Part shown: positions 26,650 through 32,286 of the stretch, piece after piece
How the letters are laid out: the number at the start of each line of letters is the position of its first letter
Position numbering within the stretch: position 1 is the stretch's first letter
Position numbers and translations under genes: made by a program
The notes under the pieces: model-generated
Database searches by the model: none
Seen by the model: only the letters and a program-made list of their open reading frames with translations
Told to the model about the DNA's origin: nothing
Assembly (NCBI GenBank): GCA_965223265.1
Contig: OZ244999.1
Span: 6,752,001-6,816,000 of the forward strand
From: Planctomycetota bacterium
GTDB taxonomy: Bacteria; Planctomycetota; UBA8108; SXIK01
Length of the DNA stretch: 64,000 bases
Direction: 5' to 3'

Positions 26650-27049
26650 GTTTGCGTTTGCGTGGGCGTGGGCGCCTCTTAAAGTGGCAGGCACTCTCCG
26701 AGTGCCGTGGCCGCAGAGAAGACGGACGGCACTCGGAGAGTGCCTGCTACTATTGGGCGCCCGGTGGCGGAAAACTTGCCCGGATTCGAGGGCTCTTTGA
26801 GTTTTCCTTTGCCGCACCGGTTTGCGTTTGCGTTTGCGTTTGCGTTTGCGTTTGCGTTTGCGTGGGCGTGGGCGTGGGCGCCTCTTAAAGTGGCAGGCAC
26901 TCTCCGAGTGCCGTGGCCGCAGAGAAGACGGACGGCACTCGGAGAGTGCCTGCTACTATTGGGCGCCCGGTGGCGGAAAACTTGCCCGGATTCGAGGGCT
27001 CTTTGAGTTTTCCTTTGCCGCACCGATTTGCGTTTGCGTTTGCGTTTGC
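26650..27049. repeat. Two 206-bp-period tandem units, each with a REPIN-like palindrome, separated by (GTTTGC)n
   Basis: 26672-26819 identical to 26878-27025; GTTTGC x2, x7 and about x4; inverted 26-bp arms at 26683-26708 and 26726-26751. Confidence 0.92.
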
Positions 27050-27235
27050 GTGGGAAGGGGAGGGGGAGGCGGAGTGGGAGGTCACCGTACGGCGGCGGTC
27101 TTGTCGAGCGTACGCGGTGCTCGCGGGTGTGAAGTCGAGCACACAATGCACCTCCAACCTTCCGCTGTCGTAAGTCCTTTCGGTGTAAGCCGACGTAATC
27201 TGACGAATCTTTGATACAACCCGGTCGATTTACCT

Positions 27236-29326
27236 TCATAGGTCGTCGAAGAGCGTCATCTGGTTCTTCGCGCAGCCCTCCTTAGGCGGGAATCGACCCG
27301 TCGCCTTGAGCGTCGCCACGAGGCTCCGGACTCCTGGGGAGTCCAGCTCGTGGCGAGAGACGCGCCAGGGGGCGAACTCGGCGACTTGGTTTTTCCTGAT
27401 CAATCCTCGTTCGACAAGCGTACGTAATGCTATCGAGGAAACTCCTAGGTACTTGCTGGCGCCGTTCATCGACAACGCATCATCGGAGGACTGCGCTGAA
27501 TTGATACCGTTGTGTTTGCGAAATTCGGTCACCTTGTCTTTGGTCCACCGTGTGGTCGTGAGCCTTCGTCTGTTAAGCACTAAGGCAATCTCGCTGTCAC
27601 TATGCGCCGCGGCGCTGAGCCGCTTGATCAGCTCGAGCACCGAAACTTCCCTTGATGCCTTCGGAGAGGGGAATCGCAACAGCTCGGAGGTAGAGTGTAC
27701 GCCGCCCTTCCAGTGAATCGTCAATTCCAGGCGGCGACTTTGCCGATTGGATCCAACGAGCTCGCCGCTCTCCTTGATCATGATCTCGTGAATCGCTGCT
27801 CGCAGCAGAGTCTTCTTCAGCCTGACATCAATCGTCGATCGCCAGACCAACTGGAAGTTCCGTGCGAGAGTCTCGAGACGTTTTCGCTCTGCGACAGTCA
27901 ACGTCAATCTCGACGACTGCTGCTTGTGGAGTGTCTCCTTTGCCTCGGCAAGCCGCTGAAGCTTGTCGTTGAGACGTTTCTCGAGGTTGTCCGCAACAAG
28001 GCGATTCCTCGGATCGCACGCGTCGAACTGTTCGAATGCATGACTGGCGGCGTACTGCGCAGCCTCGACCTGCTGCTTCGCGTAGTTCAACTCGTCGGCT
28101 CGGCTCTTCTCGATCTGCTCGAACGCCCTGGTCGCAGCCTCGATCCCCGAGGAGTCAAGCGCTCGACACAACTGCTGCGCGACGATCGGGTCAACGCGAC
28201 ATGCCCCAACAGAGAGACAAATGCGTGAGTTCCCCTTTCGTGTGCCGTCGCAGTAATAGAAGGCCTTCTCGTATCGGTACCGGACCTTCAGCTGATCGCC
28301 ACAGTGACCACAACGCAACATCCCCGCCAGGAGAGCCTGGCCTTCCCGCGCGGCTCCTCGGTTGCCGTCGAGCCCTCTTCGCGGTCGATTCTGCGATAGC
28401 TTCTTCAAGTTCGCTTCGTACTCTGACCAATCGATGTAGGCTGGGTGATGGTCACGGATCATCACCCGAGCTTCACCAGGATCTTGCCGACGTTCACGCT
28501 GTTTGACCAGCCTCCCATCGGCGATCTTGCTTGTCGTCCTTGAACGACCCCAAGCGTAGACTCCAGCATAGGTCGGATTGACCAGGAGGTTGTGTAGCGA
28601 CTTGGCCGACGGCACCGCCCACCTGACCGTCTTGTTGCCCAAGCCCCGACTCGGAAACTCGATCCCCGCGTCTCGGTAATGCAATGCGAGCTGTCGGGCA
28701 CTACTGGAGCCACGGAAGTCCTGAAAGACACGGCGGATCGCGGTACGGATTCTCTCGTCGGGATCGAAGACAATCTCAGTGTCGTCGTAGACGTAGCCGA
28801 TCGGTAACTGAATCCACAGCTCACCTCGCTTCGCTTTCGCCTGCTGACCTAGGCGCAACCGCAAGCGAATCGTCGCAAGCTCGGCTTCTGAGATCGAGCC
28901 ACGGATGCCGATCAACAGTCTGTCGTTAGAGAGCGACAGATCGTAGACCTGCTCGGTGTCCGCGATCAGCGTATTGAAGTGCTGACAAAGCTCCATCAGT
29001 CGCGCCCAGTCCACCGAATTCCTCGACAGTCGGGAAATCTCGAGACAGAAGATAATCCCGACTTCCCCGGCAATGACCCAGCTCTTCAGTTTCTCGAAGC
29101 CGGGGCGATCGACGAATCCAGAAGCCGACTCGCCGAGATCGTCCTCGATGAGAATCGGCTCGCGCCAGCCAAGATCGACCGCCTTGTGCCTCAGTTCGCG
29201 TTGCAGGCGCGTGCTCTCTTCGTTGTTCTTCACCTGTGTTGGCGACGATTGACGAATGTATACTACTGCCGCGCGCCTGAGGTGCTCGGTAGTGACGCCA
29301 CCTGGATGATTGCTATCGATCCTCAT
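27236..29326 (-). CDS. Large serine recombinase (resolvase, recombinase, Zn-ribbon, coiled-coil and C-terminal HTH domains)
   Basis: VYIRQSS catalytic Ser, DLGESAS, EISRLSRN, PIGY, NPTYAG, LRCGHCG..YYC, C-terminal HTH (ASKYLGVSSIALRTLVERG). Confidence 0.95.
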   Translation of the reverse strand: MRIDSNHPGGVTTEHLRRAAVVYIRQSSPTQVKNNEESTRLQRELRHKAVDLGWREPILIEDDLGESASGFVDRPGFEKLKSWVIAGEVGIIFCLEISRLSRNSVDWARLMELCQHFNTLIADTEQVYDLSLSNDRLLIGIRGSISEAELATIRLRLRLGQQAKAKRGELWIQLPIGYVYDDTEIVFDPDERIRTAIRRVFQDFRGSSSARQLALHYRDAGIEFPSRGLGNKTVRWAVPSAKSLHNLLVNPTYAGVYAWGRSRTTSKIADGRLVKQRERRQDPGEARVMIRDHHPAYIDWSEYEANLKKLSQNRPRRGLDGNRGAAREGQALLAGMLRCGHCGDQLKVRYRYEKAFYYCDGTRKGNSRICLSVGACRVDPIVAQQLCRALDSSGIEAATRAFEQIEKSRADELNYAKQQVEAAQYAASHAFEQFDACDPRNRLVADNLEKRLNDKLQRLAEAKETLHKQQSSRLTLTVAERKRLETLARNFQLVWRSTIDVRLKKTLLRAAIHEIMIKESGELVGSNRQSRRLELTIHWKGGVHSTSELLRFPSPKASREVSVLELIKRLSAAAHSDSEIALVLNRRRLTTTRWTKDKVTEFRKHNGINSAQSSDDALSMNGASKYLGVSSIALRTLVERGLIRKNQVAEFAPWRVSRHELDSPGVRSLVATLKATGRFPPKEGCAKNQMTLFDDL

Positions 29327-29480
29327 CGTTCTCGCCCTCCACACCGTGGTTCTCGATGATCGCCTGCAGGAGAATCGCCACTGCCCGAGCGATTTCCTCC
29401 CGCTCCTTCGCGCTCAGCACTGCGAGCACGCTTTGATCTTCCGGCGGCAAGAACGGTAGAGTAAGCTGCGTCCACACCAT
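29313..29480 (-). CDS. Small accessory protein of the recombinase element (55 aa)
   Basis: Strong SD AAGGAGGAGG before ATG 29480; MVWTQLTLPF...EREEIARAVAILLQAII; overlaps recombinase start. Confidence 0.7.
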   Translation of the reverse strand: MVWTQLTLPFLPPEDQSVLAVLSAKEREEIARAVAILLQAIIENHGVEGENDEDR

Positions 29481-29772
29481 CGTCCTCCTCCTTGGTTCGA
29501 GTTGGTTCTGAGTCAAGGATGGACGATGGTGCTTCTTGGAGTCGAGACTCTACGATCGCCGCAATGACGAGGAGCTCCTCCACGTCGATGTGGGGCGATC
29601 TACACAGCTCCACCCACATAGCGCTCTCCTCGGTCATCCAGCACGGCACCAAGAGCTGGCGCTTCTCGATTTGAACCAAGTAGCAGGGCGGTTCTCTCGA
29701 GGTCCGCCGAACGACCGGCAGAGAGCGTCCCGCAAGGGGGTGGTAGGGATAGAAGACCGTTACGGTCGTCAA
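29323..29772 (-). CDS. Y4bD/DUF5372-like accessory protein of serine-recombinase elements (no SD-backed start)
   Basis: VTVFYPYHPLAGRSL...LVPCWMT signature (family recalled, not searched); stop overlaps recombinase ATG (ATGA). Confidence 0.65.
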   Translation of the reverse strand: MTTVTVFYPYHPLAGRSLPVVRRTSREPPCYLVQIEKRQLLVPCWMTEESAMWVELCRSPHIDVEELLVIAAIVESRLQEAPSSILDSEPTRTKEEDDGVDAAYSTVLAAGRSKRARSAEREGAGGNRSGSGDSPAGDHREPRCGGRER

Positions 29773-29923
29773 ACCAACATCAGTGTGGGCTACCCGTGGT
29801 CAGGGGTGCCTTCGCTGCGCTCGGCGCTGCGCGCCCTTGACACCCACTCCGCTCCGCGTTGGGGGGTGGAGTACCGCCGCCCGGACGCGGCGGGCTCTTG
29901 ACTCACCGTTTCGGAGGCTTCTC

Positions 29924-30247
29924 ATGCGCTTCATCGCTCTCGATGTCAGTCTCAGTTTGATTCGCGACTTGCGGGCTCCATTGCTGCGGCTTCGGAGGCT
30001 TGATCCAGATCTCCATCGGCAGATTCGGCGGGCTGCTTCTTCCGTCGCGCTCAATCTCTCGGAGGGTGCCGAGCGCGCTGGAAAGGATCGGCTGCACCTC
30101 TATCGCGTTGCCCGCGGCAGTGCCCGGGAGGTCGAGACTGCCCTGCAGCTCTCGGTGGCCTGGGGCGATCTCAAGACCGAAGACGTCTCAGTGCCTCTCC
30201 AGACCCTCGATCGACTCCTAGCTCTTCTCAGCGGACTCACGCGCTGA
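29924..30247 (+). CDS. Four-helix-bundle protein (23S rRNA IVP-like family)
   Basis: GGAGG SD; QIRRAASSVALNLSEG, YRVARGSAREVETAL. Confidence 0.9.
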   Translation: MRFIALDVSLSLIRDLRAPLLRLRRLDPDLHRQIRRAASSVALNLSEGAERAGKDRLHLYRVARGSAREVETALQLSVAWGDLKTEDVSVPLQTLDRLLALLSGLTR

Positions 30248-30319
30248 GCGAGGCGCCCGAGCGCCCGCTGCTTTCGTAGCGGGCGCTGCTCACGGCGCCT
30301 GCGACTTCTGTATCTGGCC

Positions 30320-30540
30320 CTGTCTCCGTCATCCGAGTCCGTCTCTGGCTCTGCATCTGTATCTGTATCTGTATCTGTCTCCGTCTCTGACTCTGTCATC
30401 TGCTTCTGTATCTCTATCCGCCATCCGTCTCTGATTCTGACTCTGACCCCAACGTTGCAAAAGAGACGCGCCTTAAGACCGTGCGCGATTGCGATTGAGT
30501 GAGAGTTTGCGTGTGGGTGTGCGTGGGCGAGGGGGAACAC
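30320..30540. repeat. Degenerate hexamer microsatellite (TCTGTA/TCTGAC/TCCGTC)n downstream of the four-helix-bundle gene
   Basis: tctgcatctgtatctgtatctgtatctgtctccgtctctgactctgtc..., tctgattctgactctgacc. Confidence 0.8.
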
Positions 30541-30843: not shown

Positions 30844-32286
30844 TCACGAGCAGGCTATCGACCCGCCCTCGCAGCCGAGCTCGTCTGCGGTGGGATCCAC
30901 GCCGGGCATCAGGGGGCCGGGCGTCGGCGGCTCCGGCTGTGCCGGCACGAAGAGATACTCAAGCAGGAAGACGATGTCGCTGGCATCAAGACGGCCGTCG
31001 TCGTTGGCGTCGCAAGCGTCCTCGCACGGCGCCAAGAACTTCTGCTCACCCTCGAGGAAGATGAAACCAGCTGCCGCGGCCGCGTCTGAGATATCGATCG
31101 CCATCCCAGTCATGCCGGAGAAATTGCAATCGCCGCGGACGAATTCCTGGCGCTGCGTCACGCAGACATCGCAGTCGAATAGCTCCACTGGTCGTGCCTC
31201 AAAGTCGACGGAAATCAGGTTCTTGACGGCGACGCCATCGTTTGCTTCCTCACCATCGGTGAAACGAAGCGGCAGGCACTCACCGCAAAAAGCGTCTTCG
31301 CCGACGCGGAAGTCGACGGAGAAGAGCTTCGCGAATCCGGCAGCCGCCGGCAGCGTGCGGCCGTCAAACGGCGGGTTCGAATCGATCAAGATTCCCATGG
31401 TCAGGCCACAGCCATCGCCGTCGGTGCTTGAATTGTCGTTGTCGATCACGAGATTGACGAACTCCGCTTCGGACGATTCAAGCGCCGTTCCCGTCGTGTT
31501 GAGGGATTCAGGGATCGCGCTCAGGGCGCAGTCGTAGCGCACGGACATTGAGAGCCCCTGAACAGGGTCGGCCGACCGGTAATAGAAGTTCACAGTCGTC
31601 GTCCCGCCCAGTTCGGCTTCGAGCGGGCTCGGCGAGCCGGCGGCGTCAAGTTCTCCGCCGCACGCGAACGCAGCCTCACCACCACCGGTTGGCGAGCAAA
31701 CGAAAGCACCATGACGCAGCGTCAAGCCGCCATTCTCTTGCCAAACGAACTCGCCGAAGACGAGGAGCGTATTGAACACGCTTACGGCGGGATCGCCGAT
31801 CTGAATCTGCTCGTCGACAAGCGTGATCGCATGTTCTTGAGGGCCGGCGGCATCGGTGGCAAGGCAGCGGATCTGCGCTTCACCGACTTCGAAGTTGTCC
31901 CCTGCTGGGATCTTTTCGCAGTCAGCGCTGTCCGCATCCATGCTGACGCCGAAGATCATCGATCCATCCGACACCTGGGTGACGACGAGATCTGCGCTTT
32001 CTAGCAATTCGCCAGGCCCATCCCGTGGCACGAGCGCCTCGCCCCTCCCACTAGACTCGTCCCAAGTCATGGCGATCACAAAACCGTGAAACGGCTCGTC
32101 CGAGCTGATCAAGATCGGCACGCTCGCGACCTCGCCGGGGGCCGCCTCGCCGCGTCCGACCGTGATGGCGTTCTCCCCTCGTACACGCGCACCGCAGAGC
32201 GCAATGATCGATACGGCAGCCGCTACGAGAGGCCGTCTACTAAGGCGACGATTCAAAACACGCACCCGAAAGGAATCCTTGACCAT
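30844..32286 (-). CDS. Secreted protein with two cohesin-like domains and C-terminal dockerin-like domain
   Basis: Signal peptide; beta-rich units (GEVASVPILISSDEPFHGFVIAMTWD; GTTTVNFYYRSADPVQGLSMSVRYD); tail FVRGDCN...DISDA...ACDANDDGRLDASD..LL.YLF...PGVDPT.D.LGC. Confidence 0.75.
   Translation of the reverse strand: MVKDSFRVRVLNRRLSRRPLVAAAVSIIALCGARVRGENAITVGRGEAAPGEVASVPILISSDEPFHGFVIAMTWDESSGRGEALVPRDGPGELLESADLVVTQVSDGSMIFGVSMDADSADCEKIPAGDNFEVGEAQIRCLATDAAGPQEHAITLVDEQIQIGDPAVSVFNTLLVFGEFVWQENGGLTLRHGAFVCSPTGGGEAAFACGGELDAAGSPSPLEAELGGTTTVNFYYRSADPVQGLSMSVRYDCALSAIPESLNTTGTALESSEAEFVNLVIDNDNSSTDGDGCGLTMGILIDSNPPFDGRTLPAAAGFAKLFSVDFRVGEDAFCGECLPLRFTDGEEANDGVAVKNLISVDFEARPVELFDCDVCVTQRQEFVRGDCNFSGMTGMAIDISDAAAAAGFIFLEGEQKFLAPCEDACDANDDGRLDASDIVFLLEYLFVPAQPEPPTPGPLMPGVDPTADELGCEGGSIACS

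Follow-up and report, generated by a model that had tools for sequence, protein, structure and literature searches.

The window analysed here is a stretch of 64,000 nucleotides from a Planctomycetota bacterium (GTDB lineage Bacteria; Planctomycetota; UBA8108; SXIK01; assembly GCA_965223265.1, contig OZ244999.1, forward-strand positions 6,752,001 to 6,816,000), and plain coordinates below refer to it. On its minus strand, between 29798 and 27129, lies a minimal, site-specific mobile element that is moved by a large serine recombinase and measures 2670 base pairs (bp), counting one copy of its AC core (27130-27129). The limits are the boundaries of identity between copies of the element in the same genome. 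Three genes are carried: gene 1, encoding a remote relative of the DUF5372 proteins, a second open reading frame (ORF2) nested within it, and the recombinase gene. The right end of the element bears a Shine-Dalgarno (SD) motif with a start codon, the left end bears the body of gene 1, and the two share one reading frame when the ends are joined. We put the probability at roughly 75% that gene 1 becomes whole only in the circular form of the element and that its product is a cofactor of the recombinase.

The recombinase gene (27236-29326, minus strand) encodes 696 amino acids (aa). Pfam searches identified the resolvase catalytic domain PF00239 at residues 20-169 (E = 1.9e-19; 70.6 bits, cut-off 23.3), the Recombinase domain PF07508 (E = 1.5e-13), and the zinc ribbon PF13408 (26.3 bits, cut-off 25.3). 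The traits of a serine integrase are thus seen at this locus: an N-terminal catalytic domain, PF07508 followed by PF13408, a 2-bp core shared by the recombining partners, and imperfect inverted-repeat arms around it, which in such sites usually measure about 20-25 bp. On these sequence characters the enzyme belongs to the large serine recombinases and is predicted to catalyse attP x attB recombination. It is the sole enzyme of the element, which encodes no DDE or DEDD transposase, and the 696-aa protein gave no Pfam match to DUF4368. ORF2 (29313-29480, minus strand, 55 aa) has a strong SD motif, is nested in the +1 frame within the 3' portion of gene 1, and ends 14 nucleotides (nt) into the recombinase gene. 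Its product is a conserved small helical protein (35 aligned homologues) with no match in Pfam or NCBIfam.

The genome (9.18 Mb) holds six copies of the element, near-identical with 0-4 nucleotide differences in 2670 bp, as well as 15 empty target sites, and together these fixed the crossover. AC was the only sequence common to the empty sites, the left junctions and the right junctions; the element limits are therefore 29798 and 27129. The left copy of the crossover dinucleotide (attL core) occupies 29799-29800 and the right copy (attR core) 27129-27130, both on the minus strand, and the register used for the right core also yields matching cores in 45 of 54 homologous loci, described below. 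A crossover of 2 bp is as expected for a serine recombinase. An initial annotation, made from the letters of the window, had placed the limits at 27142 and 29787, which is 11-13 nt short at each end, and had read the central dinucleotides as GA and GG where the copies and empty sites give AC on both partners. The imperfect inverted motifs it reported at the ends are real and belong to arms that mirror each other at positions -18 to -8 from the crossover. Close relatives supplied no empty sites, because 60 related genomes held just one further match to the recombinase.

The body of gene 1 (29326-29798, minus strand; stop codon 29325-29323) consists of a DUF5372-related domain and a tail that is not conserved. 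Read from 29799, its frame stays open past a CAC codon at 29787 to a TTG at 29772-29770, codon +5 after the CAC, and this TTG is the only in-frame ATG, GTG or TTG of gene 1 in the integrated state. Nothing SD-like precedes it. Upstream, the frame is closed by a TGA at 29802-29800, which comes from the target and forms part of a conserved TTGAC. At the other end of the element, 81 nt beyond the recombinase stop codon (TGA, 27238-27236), the minus strand reads GGAGGT (27155-27150), GCATT (27149-27145) and GTG (27144-27142). The SD-like GGAGGT lies on the right (P) arm 6 nt before the GTG, and the GTG, at -14 to -12 from the core, is where gene 1 is proposed to start in the circle. The anti-SD sequence of the host is canonical, and by a crude estimate SD-like motifs precede the first ATG of 31% of long ORFs, compared with 11% in a control window. 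Both the outward-pointing signal at 27155-27142 and the open frame with its upstream TGA and no SD-backed start had been noticed in the initial annotation, and both were confirmed.

Joining the ends through a single AC places GTG 27144 in frame with gene 1. Five codons are read from 27144-27130, one from 27129 plus 29798-29797, and the following ones from 29796 onward. The in-frame gene with its own SD motif that had been foreseen for the joined ends thus holds at the corrected junction; the 12-nt spacer assumed for it was wrong, as 24 nt separate the GTG and the CAC codon, though the frame is unchanged. Other starts nearby (TTG 27157, GTG 27151 and GTG 27142) share another frame, stopping after 13-15 codons. 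With ends that enclose the SD-GTG motif, a junction in frame, and most homologues lacking an internal start, the original proposal withstood each of these comparisons.

In the integrated element the same signal points outward, and an outward ORF in the other GTG frame spans 26885-27157, as might be anticipated if the right-end SD and start codon served to translate into host DNA, producing a fusion peptide or activating a downstream host gene. The outward frame from GTG 27144, however, ends after about 20 codons in repeat DNA. Moreover, the flanks of homologous elements vary widely (hairpin, tRNA 3' end, palindrome, gene 3' end), yet the distance between start codon and core is fixed at 14 nt. 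We consider outward translation barely credible as the role of this signal.

Relatives of the recombinase were abundant, with 3563 at E <= 1e-20 among 8000 candidates scored, and they came from many phyla. The best was 57% identical among the matches listed, and most of the 120 relatives listed sit on contigs whose length of 2.2-5 kb is close to that of the element. We compared 33 homologous loci from genomes and 80 from metagenomes, again from many phyla and at 31-58% identity, with locus clusters drawn at 90% identity. Of 114 loci searched with a hidden Markov model of the gene 1 domain, 100 carry this domain ahead of the recombinase gene, and 13 of the 14 loci without it have less than 320 nt of contig upstream. 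A conserved codon triple, His/Gln-Asn/Lys-Thr, precedes the domain in 79 of the 100; for the remaining 21, the N-terminus is off the contig in 9 and no recognisable triple was found in 12.

Cores were predicted in these loci by a geometric rule, with the left core 13 nt before the His/Gln codon and the right core 14 nt after the start codon in a conserved 8-nt motif. The independently predicted left and right cores were identical in 45 of the 54 loci evaluable at both ends (30 of 36 clusters), whereas 156 shifted registers used as controls yielded 3.4 matches on average and never more than 21. For five of the loci, the right end offered more than one candidate in this matching. The right-end start codons of the 45 matching loci were GTG (31), ATG (13) and CTG (1), and in 38 of these loci there is no in-frame ATG, GTG or TTG between core and domain. 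When the left-arm DNA motif was sought in all three phases of 54 non-redundant loci, it turned up in 39, and in 38 of these it shared the phase of the domain. Homologues accordingly conserve both the SD and start codon that the window shows at the right end and the in-frame fusion (45 of 54 loci; SD-like motifs in 25 of 30 right arms).

The same layout recurs in more distant relatives. A second element of the same genome, 3382 bp long and present in two copies that are 99.97% identical (G000:C1:6104029-6107410 and 2468207-2471588; loci L016 and L017), contains a canonical DUF5372 gene (78 bits), a helix-turn-helix (HTH) gene and a gene for a recombinase of 691 aa, 38% identical to that of the window. 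Its core is TT; an ATG stands 14 nt before this core at the right end, and the ORF, in frame with this ATG, extends without a stop to the left boundary. In Sinorhizobium plasmids, among them pSymA of S. meliloti strain 1021, an element with DUF5372, HTH and recombinase genes carries the same right-end signal, which there overlaps the recombinase stop codon (records L131, NC_019847.2, and L132, NZ_CP140903.1). Its TT boundaries were fixed by two insertion contexts, and no canonical start lies ahead of the DUF5372 domain. RefSeq-derived coding sequences begin at an ATA, giving 87 aa, or at a CTG that lies within the domain, giving 69 aa; these start calls are probably an artefact of the missing start codon.

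A conserved 8-nt motif occupies -19 to -12 on both arms of the 30 matched clusters, and the GTG of the window falls within a TTGTG common to the two arms. The right-end GGAGG-GTG could then be just an arm to which the recombinase binds, without any role in translation, and gene 1 would start inside the element in both states. The internal TTG or ATG found in the window element and one clade (7 of 45 loci) would suit this explanation, as would the ATA or CTG starts chosen by annotation pipelines in Sinorhizobium. The two arms differ, however, at the start codon itself. At -14 to -12 the right arm reads GTG in 22 clusters, ATG in 7 and CTG in 1, whereas the mirrored left arm reads CTG in 13, GTG in 12 and TTG in 5. 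The mirrored left arm thus tolerates C, G or T where the right arm has G or A, so that a GTG or ATG occupies the position of the window GTG in 29 of 30 homologous clusters, compared with a GTG in 12 of 30 on the left. SD-like 4-mers at -30 to -17 were frequent on the right (25 of 30 arms) and rare on the mirrored left arm (3 of 30). Because codon choice and SD-like motifs differ between the right and the mirrored left arm, the right-end start codon is, as far as sequence comparison can tell, more than a by-product of the recombinase-binding arm. A canonical start inside the element is also missing in 38 of 45 loci, and the frame is open from the domain to the element end, with the arm motif in phase as described above. 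A binding arm without translational function is in our judgment unlikely.

The three genes overlap one another. The stop codon of gene 1 overlaps the recombinase ATG as ATGA (29326-29323), and an NTGA overlap of the gene 1 stop with a start in the recombinase frame was present in 56 of 75 loci (43 of 53 clusters). The gene 1 frame is open across ORF2 in 36 of 50 clusters, against 11.8 expected from synonymous resampling of ORF2 codons, and 15 of 54 loci show a GTGA in which the recombinase stop and the right-end start overlap. Because the stop of gene 1 overlaps the recombinase start, ribosomes translating gene 1 would be expected to pass on to the recombinase gene as well. A scan of the element found no minus-strand terminator, and the RNA between the recombinase stop and the right end folded no better than shuffled sequences (z 0.56).

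The description of gene 1 as DUF5372-like survived in part. By the Pfam threshold it failed, with 15.7 bits against a cut-off of 25 for PF17342 (E = 0.016), and PF17342 matched 7 of 39 gene 1 relatives at E <= 0.01. By profile comparison it stood, as the gene 1 family aligned to a canonical DUF5372 protein with an hhalign probability of 94.6% (E = 7e-8). On this sequence comparison gene 1 is a remote relative of DUF5372 and not a member by the Pfam rule; it had no NCBIfam match. A structure model was confident for residues 11-90, which form four strands and then helices. The long tail was ruled out as a conserved protein segment, being unconserved and modelled as disordered. A Foldseek search of the fold against the PDB returned just weak SH3-like and KOW-like matches (best E 0.09), and with matches so weak we drew no function for gene 1 from them.

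We also modelled the gene 1 protein in complex with the recombinase. The complex scored 0.67, and the best of three controls scored 0.00; a score of 0.67 is reached by 58 of 80 solved complexes and by 2 of 110 mismatched pairs, counts that apply only approximately here, where our own alignments were used. Runs agreed in at least 87% of contacts, with a pLDDT (the per-residue confidence of the model) of at least 72 for the partner. The modelled interface comprises recombinase residues 338-345, 385-402, 473-518 and 536-546, and its contacts fall on the zinc ribbon and the coiled-coil base. Directionality factors have been placed where the second DNA-binding domain meets the coiled coil (PMC12286644), and in our model the gene 1 protein binds the recombinase where such factors bind.

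We propose the following mechanism. The attP of the excised form would lie inside the 5' end of gene 1: the right end of the element would contribute the SD motif, the GTG and the first five codons, and the left end everything that follows. Integration would part the initiation region from the body of gene 1 and place a host TGA before that body. Excision and circularisation would rejoin both parts in frame, so that gene 1 acquires an SD motif and a start. Its translation would cross the ORF2 start and feed the recombinase start through the ATGA overlap, and mainly the circle would then yield the recombinase cofactor together with more recombinase. In this manner the state of the DNA would itself set the mix of proteins that decides the next reaction.

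A number of observations weigh against this mechanism. Left and right cores failed to match in 9 of the 54 loci (L026, L031, L062, L064, L089, L091, L117, L121 and L130), three of which have matching siblings within their own cluster. An internal ATG or TTG that would be usable in the integrated state occurs in 7 of the 45 matching loci, including the window element, and in one clade this is an ATG three codons past the His/Gln codon. One cluster has CTG at the right-end start position, and in a subgroup with core GA the host flank itself provides an in-frame GTG. The in-frame relation across the junction follows partly from the symmetry of the arms, and the frame alone is therefore weak evidence; the weight of our interpretation rests on the asymmetry of the arms and on the missing internal starts. 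Junction 26-mers built from the 45 loci were absent from the genome and from all of the approximately 130 loci, and no terminal overlaps were found among 113 homologue contigs. In four public runs that contain the element, searched as contigs only, the sole joints seen were ones that skip the element, which correspond to paralogous empty sites, and none led back into it; no RNA data set was listed among the runs with the element. No sigma-70-like promoter was found in a scan of the integrated element, the joined-end sequence being outside that scan. Finally, synthesis from the circle alone is hard to rationalise if the gene 1 protein is a classical directionality factor that promotes excision.

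The junction sequence expected of attP is identical to that of a tandem junction, and complete gene 1 could in principle form mainly in head-to-tail tandem copies and not in free circles. A homologue with a duplicated right end 126 nt further on (L025) would be in line with such an origin. The junction 26-mers, however, revealed no tandem element junction in this genome or in the homologous loci compared, a result that also counts among the points against our proposal, and all six copies are single insertions, each in a separate hairpin. Tandem copies as the main source of gene 1 are very unlikely.

Within the proposed circle-dependent expression of gene 1, we suspect that the cofactor would favour reinsertion of the circle over excision. 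A further-reaching version, which we regard as tentative and somewhat doubtful, holds that the element senses its own topology. The three genes would form a closed translational loop in the circle, circularisation would shift the output from ORF2 and little recombinase to gene 1 protein and much recombinase, and the gene 1 protein, occupying the site used by directionality factors, would serve as a cofactor of the integration state, in effect an inverse or anti-directionality factor. If true, this would explain how a three-gene element without an outside regulator alternates between excision and insertion.

The target is a conserved, repeated hairpin, in whose 3' arm the element is inserted at AC. 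To the left of the element, the 5' arm, the loop and the start of the 3' arm occupy 29799-29848 (minus strand), and the remainder of the 3' arm, which pairs with the 5' arm of its own site, is displaced to the right flank at 27123-27128 (minus strand). A genome search with the loop motif found 20 such hairpin sites, 5 occupied and 15 empty; the sixth copy of the element lies in a truncated hairpin. The hairpin measures about 50 nt (window 29799-29920 and 27080-27128; other examples at G000:C1:749966, 1008784 and 9142842), and the changes in its stem from copy to copy are compensatory; some involve G-U-type pairs, which form on the minus strand of the window only. This pattern of variation suggests a structured RNA or a mobile repeat unit in its own right. 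One empty hairpin (G000:C1:8372033) combines the 5' arm of one stem type with the 3' arm of another, giving a mismatched stem, and could be the product of recombinase-mediated exchange between two sites.

Adjoining the target hairpin, and outside the element, is a multi-copy gene on the plus strand (29924-30247) for a four-helix-bundle protein of the type that Pfam describes as '23S rRNA intervening sequence' protein (PF05635, E = 1.8e-13); the flank with this gene is repeated about 20 times in the genome. The flanks at 26650-27080 and 30300-30480 are rich in hexanucleotide microsatellites and also hold a tandemly duplicated unit of about 206 nt with a long perfect palindrome, resembling a repetitive extragenic palindrome. 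Further on, the minus strand at 30844-32286 encodes a secreted-looking protein of 480 aa with a C-terminal dockerin-like segment rich in Asp and Gly.

Insertion sites of the homologous elements fell into several types. Four loci with core GA (L019, L024, L046 and L061) are inserted just downstream of the stop codon of a conserved host gene on the opposite strand. The flanking host GTG comes with an SD-like motif in L024, L046 and L061, where gene 1, to judge by these letters, might be translated even when integrated. In a subgroup with core TG (L029, L069, L070, L083, L086 and relatives) insertion has occurred at the 3' end of an apparent tRNA gene, and element and target share 9 nt of identity around the core. 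Loci with core TA are L071, L073, L074, L076 and L077; the flanks of L071 are mutually reverse-complementary, so that the deduced target is a perfect TA-centred palindrome, and the other TA loci have different left flanks. A palindromic core such as TA should leave the orientation of insertion unfixed. L025, mentioned above, has its right end (SD motif, GTG, arm and core AA) twice, 11 and 137 nt past the recombinase stop; the second may be a solo end from an earlier event.

Several known systems resemble the proposed arrangement in part. In IS911 and other insertion sequences (IS) of the IS3 family, in IS30, and in the IS110/IS1111 group, the joined ends of an excised circle form a promoter that boosts the recombination genes. 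As in the element described here, that boost comes only after the ends have been joined in the circle. The IS junctions, however, assemble a promoter from -35 and -10 halves for a DDE or DEDD transposase, whereas here an SD motif and start codon would be joined to the body of an ORF, the enzyme is a large serine recombinase, and the completed gene encodes a small cofactor-like protein and not the recombinase. Tn4451 and Tn4453, which move by the large serine recombinase TnpX, reportedly form an excised non-replicating circle whose joint raises the expression of recombination functions, a finding ascribed to Lyras and Rood in 2000. The likeness to our proposal is close; there, however, the joint is a promoter for the recombinase gene itself, and Tn4451/Tn4453 are transposons that carry cargo, unlike the window element.

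Attachment sites inside genes that are altered by integration are also known, from the SSV1-type integrase, intP of phage Mx8, and the integration-dependent immunity repressors of mycobacteriophages. As in the present case, crossover falls in coding sequence and the products of the integrated and free forms differ. In those systems, all known to rely on tyrosine integrases, it is an integrase or a repressor that is split or truncated, mostly at the 3' end, whereas here the 5' initiation region and five codons are detached from an accessory gene of a serine recombinase, with a product predicted to bind that enzyme.

Comparison with serine recombinases places the element more closely. The TnpX-like clade of multi-targeting large serine recombinases typically carries DUF4368 (PMC10083194), and the window recombinase has no match to this domain. 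The gene 1 protein resembles directionality factors such as phiC31 gp3 and SPbeta SprB (PMC12286644) in being small, element-encoded and, by our model, predicted to bind at their site. No sequence relation or clear fold relation to the known factors was found, only the weak SH3-like matches, and an excision factor would seem to call for the reverse of synthesis gated by circularisation. Like the window element, the gin element, which interrupts gerE of Bacillus cereus and is described as a single-copy developmental element (PMC5595907), is a very small, non-phage serine-recombinase element at a specific site. The window element differs in its multiple copies, its insertion-sequence-like behaviour, and its conserved operon of three overlapping genes. 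The literature searched contained no description of this element family or of a start codon split off by attP in a serine-recombinase element, and the name 'DUF5372' was absent from it. Circularisation that turns on element genes is a known principle, through junction promoters, and the separation of a start codon from its gene by attP is apparently undescribed.

Serine integrases are valued for genome engineering, and the direction of their reaction is set by a small cofactor. To our knowledge, the natural timing of this cofactor is understood for a few phages only. A large and apparently undescribed family of minimal elements seems to hard-wire cofactor timing into the topology of the DNA. 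If confirmed, this would mean that site-specific recombination has a new regulatory principle and that recombinase-cofactor pairs include a new class, and it would offer synthetic biology a compact, self-limiting switch. It would also carry a warning for annotation, where the start-less integrated genes of these elements are called with ATA or CTG starts or are truncated.

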